From: an uncultured Alphaproteobacteria bacterium
GTDB taxonomy: Bacteria > Pseudomonadota > Alphaproteobacteria > Methylaequorales > Methylaequoraceae
Assembly: GCA_964484795.1 (NCBI GenBank)
Contig: CAZAFN010000005.1
Location: 273-64,272, forward strand
DNA: 64,000 nt
Reading direction: 5' to 3'
Below the pieces are notes generated by a model. It did not search any database, was not told the DNA's origin, and saw nothing but the letters and a program-made list of their open reading frames with translations. This document shows positions 1 to 17,958 of this stretch, one piece after another; within the stretch, counting starts at the first letter, position 1, and each line of letters begins with the position of its first letter. The position numbers and the translations under genes are program-made.

Positions 1-642
1 AATGCTGCATTCATCGCAGATTTTAATAAACATAAGTTTAAAAAAAAATATGATTTAATTTTTTGTTCTCACGTTATAGAACACCAAAGAAATCCAGGAC
101 TCTTTCTTGATAAAATTTTTGATTCTCTCAAAGATGAAGGGGATTTAATTATTTCAGCTCCAAAACATCCTGCGGAAAGATTTGTTGAAGGACATATATT
201 GTCCACTATTTTACCTGTTTTTTTACAGATGTTAATATATGCTGGATTTGATTGTAAAAAAGGTAAAATGATTTCACTTTTGGGTATTGAAAATTCATTT
301 ATTGTAAAAAAGTCTAAAAATTTCTCATTAGAGGAAAGAGATGCGACTGGATATAAATGGACAAAAAATCACCAAGATCGTTCGCCAATAGAATTAAGAG
401 CAGGCTATGAGATTCCAGCTACTACTTTGCATTTAAACAACTGTGAAATATTCAAGATATATGAAAAAGAATATGAAGAAAAAACAAATTCTGCCACTGG
501 ATTAATTTTCGATCCTCCTAAAAATTATAAAAAGAGAAACGTGAGTTTTTTGCTAAATACCTTTAAACAATTTTGTTTATACGATTCAGATAAAAATCTT
601 TTAGCTAATTTCAGTAATGATTATGTGCGTTTTAATATTTAA
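1..642 (+). CDS. Class I SAM-dependent methyltransferase, 5'-truncated by the window edge
   Basis: Frame 1 is open from nt 1 and continuous with the tracked ORF 199..642. The upstream translation reads ...KYDLIFCSHVIEHQRNPGLFLDKIFDSLKDEGDLIISAP, which is the typical post-motif-II/III region of Rossmann-fold methyltransferases. Confidence 0.6.
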   Translation, partial: NAAFIADFNKHKFKKKYDLIFCSHVIEHQRNPGLFLDKIFDSLKDEGDLIISAPKHPAERFVEGHILSTILPVFLQMLIYAGFDCKKGKMISLLGIENSFIVKKSKNFSLEERDATGYKWTKNHQDRSPIELRAGYEIPATTLHLNNCEIFKIYEKEYEEKTNSATGLIFDPPKNYKKRNVSFLLNTFKQFCLYDSDKNLLANFSNDYVRFNI

Positions 643-787
643 AAAAAGTAGTTATTAATCCAGACAACTTAATTAACTTTACTTAAAAACCTAATCCTAC
701 CCACCCCCATTGATTTCTAGGATGATTGCTTTAACATTCATAGGGATAATCTTAGAGATTTTGAAAAAAGAAATTGATACAAATTAA

Positions 788-883
788 AAAACTCAATGTA
801 GTCAAGGGTTCTAGACCTAACGCAACTGATTCAAAATCCGTCGAACTTCGGGACATGTCCATTTGAGTCGGACTAGGGGTGCC
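788..883. repeat. Copy A of a ~96-nt direct repeat; copy B is at 2117..2213, about 85% identical with one 3-nt indel
   Basis: Copy A reads aaactcaatgtagtcaagggttctagacctaacgcaactgattcaaaatccgtcgaacttcgggacatgtccatttgagtcggactaggggtgcc. I aligned the two copies by eye. They share the blocks ACTCAAT...TTGAGT and TAGTC...GACTA, a GATTcaaAATC hairpin, and a uCCG-loop-CGGg hairpin. The only indel falls in the loop of that last hairpin. Confidence 0.8.
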
Positions 884-893
884 ATAAAACTTT

Positions 894-2063
894 TTAGAAT
901 TTAAGATTTAATAATTTTGAAAGTAAATTGTCGTCAGGAATTTTTTTGAGAAAATTAATTATTATATGAATTTTTTCTCTAGAACTTTGAATTTGTTTTA
1001 CAGCCGCAGACAGTACTTCAACAAAATTATTAATACTTAATTTTTTATTTTCCTCGAATAATTGGCATACAAGAAGAAAATTAGTTAATTCTATAAAAAA
1101 TATTACTTCTCTTACAGAATCATAAAATGAATTTTCTGAAATTATAAAATTTTGAATATTTTTAATAAATTCATTTACAAAAAAGTTTTTAAAAATAAAT
1201 TCATTTTCTTTCTTAAAACTGTAAAATTTCGTTCTGTAGATAATGTCAAATTTCTTTTTGAATTCTTTTTCAGACAAATCAAAGTATTTACTTGTAGCTG
1301 CAGACTTTTTACAAATTTCTTGATATCTTGTATTATCTGGGAAATTTGAAAAACAAAGTTTTGCTAAAAAGTTTGTTTGAATTAAAGGAGAATTCTCTTT
1401 AATTTTTTTAACTTCATTTTTTGAGTAAGGTTGAGATGATTTTTTATTTTGAATCATTTTATTATATGAAATTATTATCTGTTTAAGAGCACCATAGAAA
1501 GTAATATTGCTACTTAATAGAAGGAATATGCCTTCAATGTATTTTAAAAATTTCTCTGGTAGATTTTTAGAAATTTCATATGAGTGAATATTATTTGAAT
1601 TAAATACATTAGGTAATTTATTTTTCTTCAATGTATTAATTTTTAAATTTGATTTATTTAAACACAATTTTGCCATTTCAGGACATGACAACTCACCCGC
1701 AATAAAACCAGTTTTATTAAATTTTCTTATTATTCTTGGATAGGTTGAACAACCTACTGATAAATTCTCTTGTCCCAATAAATTGTAAACATTACAAAGC
1801 TTTTTCTCATTTAAAAAGGGACAACAATTGTTATGATTAATTAATCTTCCGTAGGCTATATTTGAATTTAAATTCCTTTTAACTAGATGATTTCGAGAAA
1901 TGGATCTAATTTTTTTGTTAGTGGAATGTTCATATTTTTGATAAGTTTTTTTATCAATTTCTACATTCCAACCTATGCAACAAGAATCAATGCAATCTTC
2001 TCCAACACATTTAAAATCCAGCATATACTCTGGGACAAAAAAACTTGAACTTTCGAGATCCAT
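894..2063 (-). CDS. Cys-rich FliB/YkgJ-family protein (flagellin lysine-N-methylase-like, putative Fe/Zn-chelating domain)
   Basis: The N-terminus carries FKCVGEDCIDSCCIGW, which fits the C-x-G-x2-C-x-D-x-CC-x-GW pattern of the FliB/PF03692-type Cys cluster as I recall it. NCCPFL and GCSTYP motifs lie further in. The ORF is 389 aa and is bracketed by the two direct repeats. Confidence 0.5.
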   Translation of the reverse strand: MDLESSSFFVPEYMLDFKCVGEDCIDSCCIGWNVEIDKKTYQKYEHSTNKKIRSISRNHLVKRNLNSNIAYGRLINHNNCCPFLNEKKLCNVYNLLGQENLSVGCSTYPRIIRKFNKTGFIAGELSCPEMAKLCLNKSNLKINTLKKNKLPNVFNSNNIHSYEISKNLPEKFLKYIEGIFLLLSSNITFYGALKQIIISYNKMIQNKKSSQPYSKNEVKKIKENSPLIQTNFLAKLCFSNFPDNTRYQEICKKSAATSKYFDLSEKEFKKKFDIIYRTKFYSFKKENEFIFKNFFVNEFIKNIQNFIISENSFYDSVREVIFFIELTNFLLVCQLFEENKKLSINNFVEVLSAAVKQIQSSREKIHIIINFLKKIPDDNLLSKLLNLKF

Positions 2064-2116
2064 TTAATATTTTCGCAATATTAATGCCAAAATTTAAATT
2101 AAAAAACACCATTTTA

Positions 2117-2213
2117 GAAACTCAATTTAGTCAAGGGTTTTAGACCAGGCGCAACTGATTCAAAATCCGCCGTTGTCTTTCGGGATATGTCGATTTGAGT
2201 CGGACTAGGGGTA
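2117..2213. repeat. Copy B of the ~96-nt direct repeat, in the same orientation as copy A
   Basis: Copy B reads aaactcaatttagtcaagggttttagaccaggcgcaactgattcaaaatccgccgttgtctttcgggatatgtcgatttgagtcggactaggggtaac. It lies about 50 nt upstream of the minus-strand start of 894..2063 and about 100 nt upstream of the plus-strand start at 2317. Confidence 0.8.
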
Positions 2214-2316
2214 ACACTTTAAAGAAATTTAGAAATTATTTTTTTTGTCACTATTGTCACTGTTAATTACTTAAAATTCATATTAAAATTTATTAAGTAA
2301 TAACTGATTTAATAAT

Positions 2317-4044
2317 ATGTTGGAAAAAGTTAAAAAGTACTATCAATTAAAGAAGTACAATAAGGCAGAGATAATTGCTCGAAGAGAACTTAAAAAATCG
2401 CCAGGAATATTAGAATATTATTATTTACTTGGGCTCATTTACTATTCACTAAATAAATTAAATAATTCTCTTAAATATTTAGATATGTTTCTAGAACATA
2501 ATCCAAATCAAATTGATGCTTTAATTGCCAAGACACATTGCCTTAGGGCAATGAACAAAAATGATGAAGCCATAAACATTCTAAACAAACTATTGAATTT
2601 TGATTTTAAAAAATCTGATATTTTTCTTTTCCTTGGTGAGTGCCACCTTAAAATCTCTCAAGTGGAAAAAGCAAACTCATTTTTCCAAAAAAGTTTAGAA
2701 TTAAATTCTTCTAAGATTAACTTATTAAATGTTTATAAAATTTATAATGAATGTAATTTTCCAGAAAAGGCGTCAAAATTATTAAAAGAATCGTCTTTCT
2801 TTAAAAATGATGACGAAATAACTTTGAAATATTGTAACGATCAAGTAATTCATAATCTCCTTAATTATGAAGAAACTTACACCATTTTATCTAAATTCGT
2901 TCAAGATAAAGTAGTAAGTTCACAAATTTATAATCTTTTAGGTATGTGTTCTTTATTCCTAGGAAAAATTGAAGAAGCAAAAAAAAACTTTTTAGCATCC
3001 GTAGATTTTGATTATACCGATGCAAACCTTTCTTCTTTGTCAACATACATTTCCTCTTCATATTATCAACTTGCTCAAATGAATTATAAATTTGATGAAA
3101 ACACTCTAGACAAAATTAAAAATTTGCTTGGTAAGAATATTAATATCAATAATAAATCTTTATTAGGATATGCATTAAGCAAAATTTATTACAACAATGA
3201 GAACTTTTCAGAAAGTGCGAAGTTTCTTAAAATTTCTAACAAAAACATTTATAAAAACATAATTCTTCCTCGAGGTTGGACATTTGAAGATGAACTAAAG
3301 TTATTTCAAAATTTAAAAAAAATTTATCATTCTATTAAAAAATCAAAAATAATCTCAAATTTTGAAATCACCCCCATATTTATTCTGGGAATGCCTAGGT
3401 CAGGAACAACGTTAGTTGAGAATATTTTAAGTCAATCTGATTGTGTTCAACCGACAGGTGAAAATGGTTTTATTTTAAACCAAATTTCTGAGGAAATTCC
3501 TAACATAAAGAAAAGTAGCATTGAAGATTCCACCTTAATTTCCAAAATAAATAGCGACTTGATTTTTAAATATTTTGATTTTTTATCTCCTAAGAAAAAG
3601 TACTTTACAGATAAAACGCCTTTAAACTTTTTAGCCATAGGCATAATTAAAATACTTATTCCTAACTCCAAAATTATTTATTGCAAAAGAAATATGAATG
3701 ACAATCTCCTATCAATGTTCCAGCAATTTTTTCATTCCTATAGCTTTGATTTTTCGTATGATTTTAAAAGTCTTAAAAAATATTATGACTTACATACTGA
3801 AATTATTAAATTTTGGGACTCTGAAAATATAAGTTTCTTTAAATTAAAATATGAAGATCTAATTACCAATAAACAACAATACATTAACGACTTATGCTCT
3901 TTCATTGGAATAAATTATTCTGATGAAATGTTAGAACCTCATTTGAATAAAAGATATGTCAACACAGCTAGTTCATTTCAGGTAAGACAACCAATTAACT
4001 CTAACTCGGTAAATAAGTGGGACAAATTTAAAGAATTTTTTTGA
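2317..4044 (+). CDS. TPR-repeat protein with a C-terminal sulfotransferase domain
   Basis: The N-terminal ~300 aa are TPR-like (YYLLGLIYY, NPNQIDALIAKTHCL). The C-terminal half carries the PAPS 5'-phosphosulfate-binding motif ILGMPRSGTTLVENIL followed by sulfotransferase-like blocks. Confidence 0.75.
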   Translation: MLEKVKKYYQLKKYNKAEIIARRELKKSPGILEYYYLLGLIYYSLNKLNNSLKYLDMFLEHNPNQIDALIAKTHCLRAMNKNDEAINILNKLLNFDFKKSDIFLFLGECHLKISQVEKANSFFQKSLELNSSKINLLNVYKIYNECNFPEKASKLLKESSFFKNDDEITLKYCNDQVIHNLLNYEETYTILSKFVQDKVVSSQIYNLLGMCSLFLGKIEEAKKNFLASVDFDYTDANLSSLSTYISSSYYQLAQMNYKFDENTLDKIKNLLGKNININNKSLLGYALSKIYYNNENFSESAKFLKISNKNIYKNIILPRGWTFEDELKLFQNLKKIYHSIKKSKIISNFEITPIFILGMPRSGTTLVENILSQSDCVQPTGENGFILNQISEEIPNIKKSSIEDSTLISKINSDLIFKYFDFLSPKKKYFTDKTPLNFLAIGIIKILIPNSKIIYCKRNMNDNLLSMFQQFFHSYSFDFSYDFKSLKKYYDLHTEIIKFWDSENISFFKLKYEDLITNKQQYINDLCSFIGINYSDEMLEPHLNKRYVNTASSFQVRQPINSNSVNKWDKFKEFF

Positions 4045-4126
4045 CAACAATCTAATTGGCAATTCATAATTTTATTCTAAGATCGCAAAAGTACAGACCA
4101 GAAAATCAAAGTTACAAGCAAATTTA

Positions 4127-4978
4127 TTATTTTTTCAATAACGTTGAATTTTTCTTTCTAAGTGCGTCTATCAATGGATCTATTTCTCCATTTTTTATGA
4201 ATCCACTAAATTCTGATTTCCTAGTTGCCACCTCACTTATTGAACCATTTAGCAGTACATCAAAAACCTTCCACTTTCCGTCTTTAACAGTTAACAGGTA
4301 ATCGATTGAAACTTTCTCATTTTCTTTAAGAACTAAATTCGTTTTAACCTTCATATAGTTTTTTCCAAATTTTTTACTTTCTCCGCTTTCAAAGTCTGGT
4401 TGTTTGATCTTAATAAATCTTTTGATGTAACTTTTCGCAATGAACTCCTCAAAAACGAGTAACATTTCTTTTTGTTTTTCTATTCTGATGTTTTCCCAAA
4501 CATTTCCAATGATCATTGTAGTCATTTTTTCAACGTCTAAGGTACTTCTAATTAACTGCACAATTTCTTTGTAATTGCTAAAGTTTTGCAGACTTATTTT
4601 TTTCAACCCGGCATGTAGTTCCAAGATTGTATTAATTGCATCTTCCTTAATGACTTGAGCCTTTGGATTCAAATCACTAGGTTTCTTTGCAACCGGTTTG
4701 ATGGTAGGTAAATCCAGTTTAGGTTCTATTTTGGAAATTTCTTTAGAAGCAGGATCTACAATTTCTGGTTTTACATAATTTGTTGATTTGTCTGCATGAA
4801 TTATCGAATCAGTGTGTTCTTCAACCGAGGAGGTTTCTTCTGGGCCTTCATTCTCCTCTTTGTTAATTACGTTGTAGCAAGTTTTAATAGCAACTAACAT
4901 CAGTATGAATAAAAAGACTATTAGATAATAATTTCTTTTTTTAAATTGTGAAAAAAAACTAAATACTAATTTCTTCAT
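4127..4978 (-). CDS. MlaC/Ttg2D-family phospholipid-binding periplasmic protein with a ~120-aa Pro/Lys-rich N-terminal extension and a membrane anchor
   Basis: The C-terminal ~170 aa (LQNFSNYKEIVQLIRSTLDVEKMTTMIIGNVWENI...SIDYLLTVKDGKWKVFDVLLNGSISEVATRKSEF) matches the MlaC toluene-tolerance family signature. There is an N-terminal TM helix and a PKLDLPTIKPVAKKPSDLNPK linker. Confidence 0.65.
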   Translation of the reverse strand: MKKLVFSFFSQFKKRNYYLIVFLFILMLVAIKTCYNVINKEENEGPEETSSVEEHTDSIIHADKSTNYVKPEIVDPASKEISKIEPKLDLPTIKPVAKKPSDLNPKAQVIKEDAINTILELHAGLKKISLQNFSNYKEIVQLIRSTLDVEKMTTMIIGNVWENIRIEKQKEMLLVFEEFIAKSYIKRFIKIKQPDFESGESKKFGKNYMKVKTNLVLKENEKVSIDYLLTVKDGKWKVFDVLLNGSISEVATRKSEFSGFIKNGEIDPLIDALRKKNSTLLKK

Positions 4979-8553: not shown

Positions 8554-9480
8554 CTAATTGACTTTTTTCCATTCCATTTTATTTGAGAAATTTATTTGAT
8601 TGTGCAAGAATTCTGCTTGACAGGTAGTGTCAATTCCATCGACAAAAGAAAACACGATACCGTTTGAAAAACTTTTAGCAACTGCTTTAACTTTTTCATT
8701 TGAATCATATACCAATGCCGAATCAAATGGATATTTTTTAATTTCATATCCATTTTTGTATTTGCCTGCTATCTGTTCAATATTGTTTTTCTCACTTTCT
8801 CGGTTAAAAAATAATTGAGCTATAGTTCCGTGGTTTTTCAATGACAATGTTCCAACAAAATATGGCGTTACATTCTCTAATTTGCTTGAATTAACTATTT
8901 CCATGTATTCTTCTACATCTCTTAATAAAAGTACAAACCTGTAATTAGTTGCTCCTAGATTATCAAGACATTCTTTTAAATTATTAATGTAACTAGTGCT
9001 TATTCCGAATCTTTTTGAAAAATCTTCTTTAGATGGTGCAAATTTCACAAGATTCTCCTGAGAGTTTGAAATTACAAACGTCTTTTGGATAAAATCATCC
9101 CTTATAAAATCTAAAAAACGTTTCCATAAATATGCATACTTATCTTTGAAATTTTGGTAGGTAGATTGATCAATCAATAATTCTTCGCCACTCTTCTCAA
9201 AATCATGAAAAAGCCATATTCCATTAATGCAAACAGCGTCTTTTTGTGAAATAGATTTCTTTAATAGACTCAATTCATTAACAGATGGTTGAAAAGCCTT
9301 TCCATCGTCATTTTTAAGTGACCTTAGTACAAATTCTTTCGTCACAACATTCCAATCATATGGCATGGAAACATCATTGGTATTTTCAAGAATCTCAATG
9401 GTAAACTTAGACTGGCATGAAAAACCAAGCGAAATGTAATTGTGTGGCAAATTATTCTTTATCATATAAATATATACCAA
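8554..9480 (-). CDS. DUF1796-like protein (putative papain-like fold), hypothetical
   Basis: The N-terminus HNYISLGFSCQSKFTIE...SMPYDWNVV resembles the ISLGxxC...PFDW opening of DUF1796 proteins, which are often found in surface-glycan loci. Similarity judged from memory only. Confidence 0.4.
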   Translation of the reverse strand: MVYIYMIKNNLPHNYISLGFSCQSKFTIEILENTNDVSMPYDWNVVTKEFVLRSLKNDDGKAFQPSVNELSLLKKSISQKDAVCINGIWLFHDFEKSGEELLIDQSTYQNFKDKYAYLWKRFLDFIRDDFIQKTFVISNSQENLVKFAPSKEDFSKRFGISTSYINNLKECLDNLGATNYRFVLLLRDVEEYMEIVNSSKLENVTPYFVGTLSLKNHGTIAQLFFNRESEKNNIEQIAGKYKNGYEIKKYPFDSALVYDSNEKVKAVAKSFSNGIVFSFVDGIDTTCQAEFLHNQINFSNKMEWKKVN

Positions 9481-9660
9481 AAGTATGATTTAAATATTCT
9501 TATTATACTTTTAAGTGCAATATTCGTGACAAATGTAGAGTTTTTAAAGTCTAATGCCTTACAACAATTTTTTTTATTAATCGAATGTTAGGCATACCAT
9601 TTATTTTATTTTTTGATAGTATTAACTCTCGTAATTAATTAACAGTGGAGGGTTGATTTA

Positions 9661-9792
9661 ATGAATGAAGATAATGAATGCGGATGTGGCCGATCTCCTA
9701 CAGGAAAGTGCATTGGATGGCATCTTTTGAGTGAGGAAGAATATAAAACAAAATTGGCTAATTACGAAAACAAAAAAGATTCAGAAAAATAG
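9661..9792 (+). CDS. Small Cys-containing protein, 43 aa (MNEDNECGCGRSPTGKCIGWHLLSEEEYKTKLANYENKKDSEK)
   Basis: The ATG is preceded by a strong SD (agtGGAGGgttgatttaATG), which is unusual in this genome. It lies in a 460-bp spacer and is below the ORF-track size cutoff. Confidence 0.35.
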   Translation: MNEDNECGCGRSPTGKCIGWHLLSEEEYKTKLANYENKKDSEK

Positions 9793-9944
9793 TTTTGAAT
9801 TTTATTGTTTAAACATCATTTAAAAAAACAAGAAAAATTACCCCAAAGACGATCAAAAACTGAATGATATTAAAAATCATTATCATTGACAAATCTAATT
9901 TAATAACTACATTTTTTATATAGTTAATTACAAGGAAAGTGTTT

Positions 9945-17882: not shown

Positions 17883-17958
17883 TGGCGATCTCATCTGGAC
17901 TCGAACCAGAAACTAATCCTTAGGAGGGATTTGTTATATCCAGTTTAACTATGAGACC
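17883..17958 (-). tRNA. tRNA-Arg (anticodon CCU), 76 nt with encoded CCA
   Basis: The minus-strand sequence is GGTCTCA-TA-GTTA-AACTGGATA-TAAC-A-AATCC-CTCCTAA-GGATT-AGTT-TCTGG-TTCGAGT-CCAGA-TGAGATC-G-CCA. I folded it by hand into a cloverleaf with a 7-bp acceptor stem (one G-U pair), a 4-bp D stem, a 5-bp anticodon stem with U33 and the CCU anticodon, and a T-loop TTCGAGT. Confidence 0.9.

Follow-up and report, generated by a model that had tools for sequence, protein, structure and literature searches.

Two direct repeats near the left end of the 64,000-nt stretch of contig CAZAFN010000005.1 analysed here (the window), copy A at 788-884 and copy B at 2117-2216, are decayed remnants of a tRNA-Leu(CAA) gene. 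Each consists of the 3′ two-thirds of that gene, preceded by a conserved non-coding arm. Both lie on the plus strand in the same orientation, and they bracket a single gene for a FliB-like, cysteine-rich protein. The locus belongs to a known kind, in which decayed tRNA halves, here those of tRNA-Leu(CAA), mark cassette insertions in the accessory region of a SAR11-type genome. We estimate a probability of roughly 85% that the repeats are composite attachment (att) site scars, made up of the arm and the 3′ two-thirds of tRNA-Leu(CAA), that were left by serial site-specific integration at the anticodon loop.

The repeats derive from a tRNA-Leu(CAA) gene

The alignment of copies A and B comprises 85 matches, 15 mismatches, and 3 gap columns that correspond to one 3-nt indel. 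This agrees with the initial annotation of the locus, which described direct repeats of about 85% identity in the same orientation with a single 3-nt indel, except that it counted approximately 12 substitutions instead of 15. A repeat search returned two collinear blocks, 779-843/2108-2172 (65 nt, 85%) and 838-880/2170-2212 (43 nt, 86%), and the shift in A-B spacing from 1329 to 1332 places the indel near 840-843. Two invariant 20-mers occur only at A and B within the window, with up to three mismatches allowed, and in none of 100 shuffled versions of it. Homology to other genomes extends beyond the repeats themselves, upstream of copy A to about 643 and downstream of copy B to about 2260. The element is intergenic, lies near gene starts, has a G+C content above that of its surroundings, and contains local hairpins. 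As the two-copy structure is also present in independent assemblies from other samples (both copies in L006, and an identical gene order in L041-L044; homologous loci are referred to by L numbers), it is not an assembly artefact. The repeats and their flanks are made up as follows.

643-819, plus strand: non-coding, P-arm-like arm of copy A, from the alignment of 9 loci.
820-884, plus strand: tRNA-derived part of copy A, a decayed 3′ fragment of tRNA-Leu(CAA) (tRNA positions 23-87, 57 of 65 identical).
2103-2146, plus strand: arm of copy B, ACACCATTTTAGAAACTCAATTTAGTCAAGGGTTTTAGACC, which is shorter and is homologous to the part of the arm nearest to the tRNA in other genomes.
2147-2216, plus strand: tRNA-derived part of copy B, a more decayed 3′ fragment of tRNA-Leu(CAA) (tRNA positions 20-87, 3-nt CCG insertion).
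2217-2260, plus strand: P′-arm-like flank after copy B, CTTTAAAG, about 25 nt, TGTCAC (2246-2251), and TGTCAC (2255-2260), the last two forming TGTCAC-TAT-TGTCAC.

The origin of the repeats was recognised in contigs that encode homologues of the FliB-like protein, which were searched with a profile built from both copies. In L016 and L017, the profile match lies inside an 87-nt gene that is a tRNA-Leu(CAA) according to ARAGORN, with the sequence GCCCCTATGGCGGAATTGGTAGACGCGACGGATTCAAAATCCGTTGAACTTCGGTTCATGTCCGTTCGAGTCGGACTAGGGGTACCA. ARAGORN called an intact tRNA-Leu(CAA) in eight loci (L016, L017, L022, L023, L031, L032, L034, and L041), and the gene is identical in the four copies compared directly (L016, L017, L022, and L023). 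The copies of the window are about 80-88% identical to it. With tRNA-Leu(CAA) alone as the query, nhmmer recovered copy A with an E-value of 3.8e-12 and copy B with an E-value of 7.6e-8, and no third tRNA fragment in the whole window, including the region to the right of the sulfotransferase gene that follows copy B (nhmmer --max, E ≤ 50). The initial annotation had regarded descent from a known gene as the outcome contrary to its own proposals, and a fragment of tRNA-Leu(CAA) is what the repeat is.

The tRNA-derived portion makes up the last 65-70 nt of each copy. It begins at the anticodon arm, includes the long variable arm and the T arm, and ends with the acceptor 3′ strand and CCA, being collinear with the tRNA over all three arms. 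The anticodon CAA is found at 832-834 in copy A and at 2161-2163 in copy B. The GATT-CAA-AATC block corresponds to the anticodon stem-loop, whose anticodon is CAA; TTGAGTCGGAC represents the T loop together with the T stem, and GACTAGGGGTnCCA spans the T stem and the acceptor 3′ strand as well as the discriminator base and CCA. The CCG...CGG hairpin with its variable loop, in which the indel had initially been placed, does lie on the long variable arm of this class II tRNA; the position of the indel, however, depends on the alignment, and MAFFT represents it as a CCG duplication where the anticodon stem meets the variable arm. The stem proper of the variable arm is TGAAC/GTTCA, and one of the two scored CCG/CGG pairs never forms. 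The local hairpins noticed earlier are thus real, but they are arms of a tRNA or are sited on them; both the hairpins and the G+C content of the element are inherited from the tRNA. When 14 homologous copies are aligned, 85% pairing is observed in the stems derived from the tRNA.

Compared with the canonical gene, the tRNA part shows 6 differences in copy A and 11 in copy B, in addition to the indel. In copy A, the variable arm and the T arm are damaged and the end reads GCCA, while the CCA end of copy B reads ACA. C56 of the T loop, a universally conserved base, is replaced by T in both copies (TTTGAGT, not TTCGAGT), and the anticodon stem contains a T-C mismatch. Both copies are devoid of the acceptor 5′ strand and of the D arm, and the unrelated sequence found 5′ of the fragments is unable to pair with TAGGGGT. 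Pair 47/62 is unpaired in 13 of the 14 copies, which we call hybrids (arm plus tRNA fragment), and the T-stem pairs 83/93 and 84/92 are broken in the copies of the window. ARAGORN called no tRNA at copy A or copy B, its sole call in the window being a tRNA-Arg(CCT) at 17883-17958. Most likely, the copies have no present function at the RNA level. Their DNA may still act as a secondary att site, or provide homology through which cassettes are exchanged or lost.

The variable arm differs between the two copies. In copy B (2170-2190), its stem is fully paired through two double substitutions relative to the canonical sequence (AU to UA and AU to CG). In copy A (840-858), a canonical 5′ strand is combined with a B-like 3′ strand and the stem is broken, which gives copy A the appearance of a recombinant between canonical and B-like sequences. 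Past the CCA end of both copies, a weak similarity is observed between 885-925 and 2217-2255 (about 25 of 37 positions). The stretch following copy A overlaps the final codons and the stop codon (894-896) of the FliB-like gene, the end of which may lie in former att-flank sequence; the region is AT-rich, and a chance similarity is possible.

A conserved arm joins the tRNA fragment at a fixed position

The first 30-40 nt of each repeat correspond to a conserved arm that is not derived from the tRNA. The arm sequence was scanned against species-representative genomes and metagenome contigs, and matches were obtained in SAR11-type single-cell genomes, metagenome-assembled genomes (MAGs), and marine contigs. 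We infer the SAR11-type label of the arm-bearing contigs from their G+C content of about 29% and from a single-amplified-genome (SAG) plate series as in PMC11796062. In L020, L022, L023, L027, L030-L032, L034, and L035, the arm is fused at a common point to a perfect or near-perfect 3′ half of tRNA-Leu.

About 90 nt of the arm, at 730-819 in the window, are common to all hybrid copies. The window, L022, L023, and L030 also have 643-729 in common, so that about 180 nt are shared, as far as the stop codon of the gene upstream. The arm of copy A exhibits TTGATAC at 775-781 and the direct repeats ACTCAA/AGTCAA at 791-806. The direct repeats of the arms consist of CATTGACACC or CATTGATAC, present one to three times, and of AGTCAA, present twice, and the arms also contain repeated TGACAC/TGATAC motifs. 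The identity between arms is 77-98% among L020, L022, L023, L027, and L030-L032, whereas the neighbouring FliB-like proteins of L022 and L020 share just 35% identity over 133 amino acids.

Other types of arm are found as well, with GTGACA present four times in L031 and L029, and with further types in L018, L021, and L023. At least five arm types give way to tRNA homology at positions 19-29 of the tRNA, and from GATTCAAAATCC onwards the homology is perfect. The position of the junction is thus fixed across independent insertions. It falls at the anticodon-loop sublocation, which is typical of tyrosine integrases that target tRNA genes. On the other side, a flank homologous to the P′-like flank of copy B is found, at equal spacing, after the hybrids of L030 and L035 and after the intact tRNA of L031.

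A small minus-strand open reading frame (ORF) in the arm (MNVK...), which at first sight is conserved, was discarded, as it meets a stop after four codons in L030 and as indels shift its frame between loci. The arm-pattern matches in L033 and L036 are due to chance and lie inside a phage tail-tube gene, and four matches in one Dehalococcoidia MAG belong to an unrelated repeat. This Dehalococcoidia repeat (MAG CBDANK01) is intergenic, measures about 150-230 nt, and is present in at least four copies (L024 509-543, L025 7673-7709, L026 1226-1261, and L028 3617-3652). Its 24-nt stretch AATGTAGTCAAGGGTTTTAGACCC is identical to the SAR11 arm in three of the four copies and has one mismatch in the L025 copy; the remainder is unrelated to the arm, has no tRNA nearby, and belongs to no Rfam family. 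By a rough estimate, a chance origin of the 24-nt identity is improbable. Just upstream of the arm in L027 (1291-1380) and L023 (311-400), tRNA-His-like remnants are observed on the strand opposite to the tRNA-Leu fragments. They exhibit GTG in the anticodon region, a T arm, and a AGCCACCCCA end, and are not called by ARAGORN. These remnants hint at cassettes that carry scars from other tRNA sites.

The window carries an array of cassettes next to an intact tRNA gene

Three genes adjoin the repeats.

1-642, plus strand: 3′ 642 nt of an S-adenosylmethionine (SAM)-methyltransferase gene (273 amino acids; Pfam Methyltransf_23/31/11).
894-2063, minus strand: FliB-like, cysteine-rich gene of the flagellin lysine-N-methylase family (389 amino acids), the sole ORF between copies A and B.
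2317-4044, plus strand: TPR-sulfotransferase gene (Pfam Sulfotransfer_3/1 and TPR).

The single cysteine-rich FliB/YkgJ-like ORF initially reported between the copies is thus confirmed. Homologues of this gene match PF27117 (FliB_C) and bear the name flagellin lysine-N-methylase in their sources, and the gene of the window itself shows a weak match to PF03692 (CxxCxxCC).

The sulfotransferase protein is identical on four other contigs, L041-L044, one of which, the near-identical L041, extends the locus to the left. L041 contains positions 1-200 of the window exactly, position 1 of the window being position 337 of L041. It carries an intact tRNA-Leu(CAA) at 33-119 on the plus strand and, 37 nt downstream, the full methyltransferase gene at 157-978. 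An intact tRNA-Leu(CAA) is thereby placed about 220 nt to the left of the window. The resulting order is the intact tRNA (+), the methyltransferase gene (+), the arm and copy A, the FliB-like gene (-), the arm and copy B, the P′-like flank, the TPR-sulfotransferase gene (+), and MlaC. The methyltransferase gene is the cargo of a cassette located between the intact tRNA and copy A, while the sulfotransferase gene is either the right flank or an older cassette. Divergence from the canonical tRNA increases with the distance from the intact gene.

The left ends of L041, L042, and L043 are at or just beyond the intact tRNA-Leu(CAA), L042 breaking off inside the tRNA (1-55), while L044 ends about 600 nt short of the tRNA, inside the methyltransferase gene. 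These contig ends suggest an assembly break, either repeat-induced or at the population level, where the island begins. Further to the right, a 460-nt spacer at 9480-9939 lies just before the point, at 10 kb, where the G+C content, until then about 0.28, rises to about 0.39. The spacer contains a short cysteine-rich ORF at about 9662-9793 (MNEDNECGCGRSPTGKCIGWHLL...), and a tRNA fragment was sought in it and none was found. This spacer may be the inner edge of the accessory region.

Related genomes exhibit empty and differently occupied sites

We compared the site in related lineages, not in the lineage of the window itself. In L016 and L017, the intact tRNA is convergent with a FliB-like gene (P0043) and nothing is inserted. 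L018, L019, and L020 encode a protein identical to P0043 and have a near-identical 3′ flank. At the place where the tRNA would be, L018 and L020 exhibit a 3′ tRNA fragment headed by foreign 5′ sequence, and the contig end of L019 falls within the fragment.

The cargo between the tRNA and the fragments differs among L021, L022, L023, L029, L031, L032, L034, and the window. In L022, the tRNA is followed by a 327-amino-acid gene of unknown function, a hybrid, and a FliB-like gene. In L023, it is followed by a Sel1-repeat gene, a fragment, two C5 DNA methylase genes around one gene of unknown function, and a hybrid. Two fragments surround genes for ATP-sulfurylase, pyruvate kinase, and APS-kinase in L021. 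L034 and L032 exhibit the tRNA, a 2OG-Fe(II) oxygenase gene, a hybrid, more genes, and a degenerate second hybrid, and L029 exhibits sugar-modification genes ahead of its hybrid. In L021, L023, L029, and L031, several fragments with differing arms are found in series. The suggestion that the repeat marks the boundary of an accessory island is therefore borne out by related genomes in which the site is empty or differently filled.

The cassette of L023 between two tRNA-Leu fragments (471-4220) encodes a 464-amino-acid protein flanked by two C5 cytosine DNA methylases, and is probably a restriction-modification or other defence module. The FliB-like gene was also considered as a constant partner of the element and rejected as such, since L008-L015, L037, and L038 carry the gene with no tRNA fragment nearby. 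Its homologues are found in at least five gene neighbourhoods in SAR11-type contigs (L016, L021, L022, L008-L015, L037, and L038, compared with the window), with or without an adjoining tRNA-Leu(CAA) or fragments. In a clade that has no flagella, the FliB-like gene behaves like a flexible one.

Serial integration at the anticodon loop as the probable origin of the scars

In the mechanism that we propose, each circular cassette would bear an attP-like site, in which a tRNA-like core with the 3′ half lies between a P arm and a P′ arm, and would recombine through it with the tRNA gene of the chromosome. The cut would be made by a tyrosine-type integrase in the region of the anticodon loop, and each insertion would rebuild an intact tRNA from the 5′ part of the host and the 3′ part borne by the cassette. 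The previous tRNA 3′ part would be displaced downstream, headed by the P arm of the incoming cassette. Serial insertion would generate a row of fragments whose age and decay increase with the distance from the tRNA, and copy B would be older than copy A. As no integrase is encoded in the cassettes with annotated genes, the enzyme would act in trans; it could be encoded by the host or by a phage, or could now be lost.

The features expected of att scars are observed in several respects. Through L041, the copies are seen to be direct repeats of the tRNA 3′ part, oriented as the intact copy located at one end. An empty attB with the flank of the conserved side is present in relatives (L016/L017, compared with L018 and L020), and the crossover position is the same in at least five arm types. 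The region also corresponds to an additive flexible island, being adjacent to a tRNA, variable in content, and composed of cassettes delimited by tRNA 3′ repeats. Among the options put forward by the initial annotation, the cassette-type recombination site is likewise supported: the copies are tRNA fragments in direct orientation with the intact tRNA, and they separate single-gene cassettes.

Several observations weigh against this mechanism. No integrase or recombinase family was found among the Pfam-annotated ORFs of the first 10 kb of the window and of the cassettes of L016-L035, so that the cognate integrase expected of such a site is missing from this set; a bulk Pfam scan of 75 locus ORFs, of which the 25 commonest families were considered, cannot exclude an integrase. 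No attP donor was recovered either, with no blastn match in 50,697 phage records and nothing in scans of viral contigs with T-arm/acceptor words, the arm pattern, and an anticodon/variable-arm word, and neither a circular form nor an attP form was observed. Four matches of the 18-mer GCAACTGATTCAAAATCC in viral contigs are all chance occurrences inside unrelated sequence. Compared with the canonical tRNA, five derived bases are common to copies A and B, and copy A looks like a mosaic of a canonical 5′ part and a B-like 3′ part. This is not predicted by a simple serial model, which would need gene conversion or homologous exchange between the copies, or a related donor. As there is no closing fragment to the right of the sulfotransferase gene, the P′-like flank after copy B is incompletely explained. 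Finally, cassettes of 1.1-1.3 kb are unusually small for integrase-mediated elements.

A bolder version of this mechanism is an integron-like system of SAR11-type bacteria anchored at tRNA-Leu(CAA), in which a recombinase acting in trans would move tiny, often single-gene cassettes between lineages by means of a composite att site of about 250 bp. This site would comprise the P arm with its TGAYAC repeats, the anticodon-loop core and 3′ half of the tRNA, and the P′ arm with its TGTCAC repeats. The proposal is tentative, and we hold it to be rather less probable than its contrary; it stays viable because arms that are 77-98% identical lie beside genes that are only 35% identical.

Alternative explanations

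The most serious alternative is that homologous recombination created the A/B pair and drives the present turnover, with the tRNA and the arm-plus-fragment unit (about 250 nt) as anchors for double-crossover swaps. Copies A and B could then be the product of a local duplication or of an unequal crossover, and the original scar could go back to a single ancient integration. The five derived bases common to both copies and the mosaic structure of copy A speak for it, and the searches made returned no integrase or attP donor. Moreover, SAR11 islands are described as lacking canonical mobile elements (PMC11796062), and recombination in flexible islands is reported (PMC4033161). On the other hand, homologous recombination does not account for the junction of at least five unrelated arm types with the tRNA at one position, for multiple fragments with different arms in series (L021, L023, L029, and L031), or for P′-type flanks after intact tRNAs and internal hybrids alike. 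Alone, it provides no source of new tRNA fragments with new arms. We regard it as a possible, though clearly less probable, explanation of the pair and of the present turnover, with perhaps one chance in four.

That the copies are functional structured RNAs, either a cis-regulatory, riboswitch-like leader or a small RNA for the sulfotransferase gene (+) and the FliB-like gene (-), is very unlikely. The raised G+C content, the local hairpins, and the intergenic location near gene starts speak for such an RNA, and a leader of this kind had been considered by the initial annotation. However, no Rfam match was obtained in the whole 64 kb at the gathering score, and at E ≤ 10 the region 600-2400 yielded only spurious ones (HIV_GSL3, a CRISPR repeat, and RAGATH-12). 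The absence of an Rfam match weighs little alone, as the Rfam tRNA model scores even an intact class II tRNA at 29.1 bits. The folding energy of both copies, on either strand, is no better than that of shuffled sequences (z = +0.35 to +1.5). In the alignment of 14 copies, two of the six pairs of the proposed ACTCAA/TTGAGT helix cannot form in 8-10 homologues, and no compensatory change is seen, while the TAGTC/GACTA pairing hardly varies and says little for or against a structure. No pair of the structure initially drawn changes on both sides, so that covariation gives it no support. In addition, both genes next to copy A have their 3′ ends towards it, the homologues adjoin unrelated genes in either orientation, and no promoter- or terminator-like site above chance coincides with the copies.

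It is even less probable that the copies are functional non-canonical tRNA or tRNA-like genes, such as a spare tRNA-Leu or a tRNA-half RNA. The CAA anticodon loop and most of the T arm are kept, and the variable arm of copy B is still paired owing to its two double changes, AU to UA and AU to CG. Nevertheless, the cloverleaf is incomplete, with the acceptor 5′ strand and the D arm gone, and the remainder is marred by the T-C mismatch of the anticodon stem, the broken T stem, the C56 to T change, and the ACA end of copy B. ARAGORN, which calls the intact gene in eight loci, never calls the copies.

An integron cassette bounded by attC sites might be suspected from a lone ORF, seemingly without a promoter, between two direct repeats of about 100 nt, and from cassette arrays with varied cargo elsewhere, but attC membership is refuted: the complementary blocks are in crossing order and form no nested R''-L''/L'-R' imperfect palindrome, there is no GTTRRRY core in the sequence, the strands fold no better than shuffles, no intI-like gene is present among the annotated ORFs, and the sequence is plainly tRNA-derived. 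A functional analogy with integrons, consisting of an integrase in trans and single-gene cassettes, is possible. A permuted or two-piece tmRNA, a tRNA-Sec, and a 5S rRNA were also considered and dismissed, as ARAGORN and Rfam returned nothing of the kind and the tRNA-Leu alignment explains every block.

Relation to known systems

Fragments of tRNA genes are commonly found as direct repeats at the ends of integrated elements, and the scheme of Williams (2002) is said to recognise the anticodon loop as one sublocation class for tyrosine integrases that target tRNA genes. Like the attL and attR sites of such elements, the repeats of the window consist of the tRNA 3′ part, oriented as the intact end copy, with a junction in the anticodon stem-loop, element-derived arms, and a tandem array with distal decay. 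They differ from these in that no integrase gene is found in the annotated cassettes, that the units have one gene and measure 1.1-1.3 kb, and that one arm type is associated with unrelated cargo.

CIME-like units (integrase-less cis-mobilisable elements) keep att sites, lack a recombinase of their own, and have it supplied in trans. The tycheposons of Prochlorococcus and CIMEs share with our locus the tRNA-anchored accretion of cargo modules separated by partial tRNA repeats. Unlike in tycheposons, the defining tyrosine recombinase was not found here among the annotated ORFs, and, unlike for CIMEs, mobility in trans is in our case a proposal. Since no integrase was found, we file the locus neither as a tycheposon nor as a prophage.

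Closer counterparts are the additive islands of SAR11 and Methylophilaceae. According to PMC11796062, seven SAR11 genomic islands are tRNA-linked, with one integrase only and no canonical mobile elements, and in four of them partial tRNA repeats mark the insertion of cassettes. In Methylophilaceae, the additive island fGI-2 is defined by recurring tRNA-Lys 3′ repeats (PMC10872708). Our locus resembles both in its location next to a tRNA, in the partial repeats that delimit cassettes, and in the absence of canonical mobile elements (PMC11796062; PMC10872708). It also resembles them in its strain-variable cargo, which includes envelope modification, methyltransferase, and restriction-modification genes (same sources), and it shares with the SAR11 tRNA-linked islands a streamlined, low-G+C, SAR11-like type of organism (PMC11796062). 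In contrast, an identity to the tRNA above 90% is described for the published repeats of SAR11, compared with about 80-88% here, and the portion of PMC11796062 considered neither describes a conserved arm of 100-190 nt nor names tRNA-Leu(CAA), both of which are present here.

HTVC019P-type pelagiphages integrate into the tRNA-Leu(TAG/TAA), tRNA-Cys, and tRNA-Arg genes of SAR11, and attR-type tRNA 3′ fragments of pelagiphages have been recovered from metagenomes (bioRxiv 10.1101/410191). The host clade is the same as here, and a tyrosine integrase of the phages recombines mid-tRNA (bioRxiv 10.1101/410191), as is proposed for our locus. In contrast, the reported tRNA-Leu targets are TAG and TAA, not CAA, and our locus contains no phage genes and has no match to phage records or viral contigs. 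In the parts of the literature consulted, we found neither a long conserved arm on unrelated single-gene cassettes nor tRNA-Leu(CAA) as an anchor.

Significance for SAR11-type genomes

The way in which the streamlined genomes of SAR11 acquire and exchange accessory genes, although they have no recognisable mobile elements, is still to be explained. The locus described here provides a sequence-level example, in which an intact tRNA-Leu(CAA) is accompanied by two single-gene cassettes and by two tRNA halves in advancing stages of decay. The recurrence of the arm on unrelated cargo in SAR11-type genomes makes the mechanism of insertion testable, and the locus can be used as a search key for cassette boundaries in metagenomes. 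The locus also calls for caution in annotation, as intergenic repeats of AT-rich genomes that have a higher G+C content and seem structured can be tRNA remnants that are missed by tRNA finders and Rfam. If the integron-like proposal were true, it would provide a concrete mechanism of gene gain for a clade that is said to lack mobile elements.

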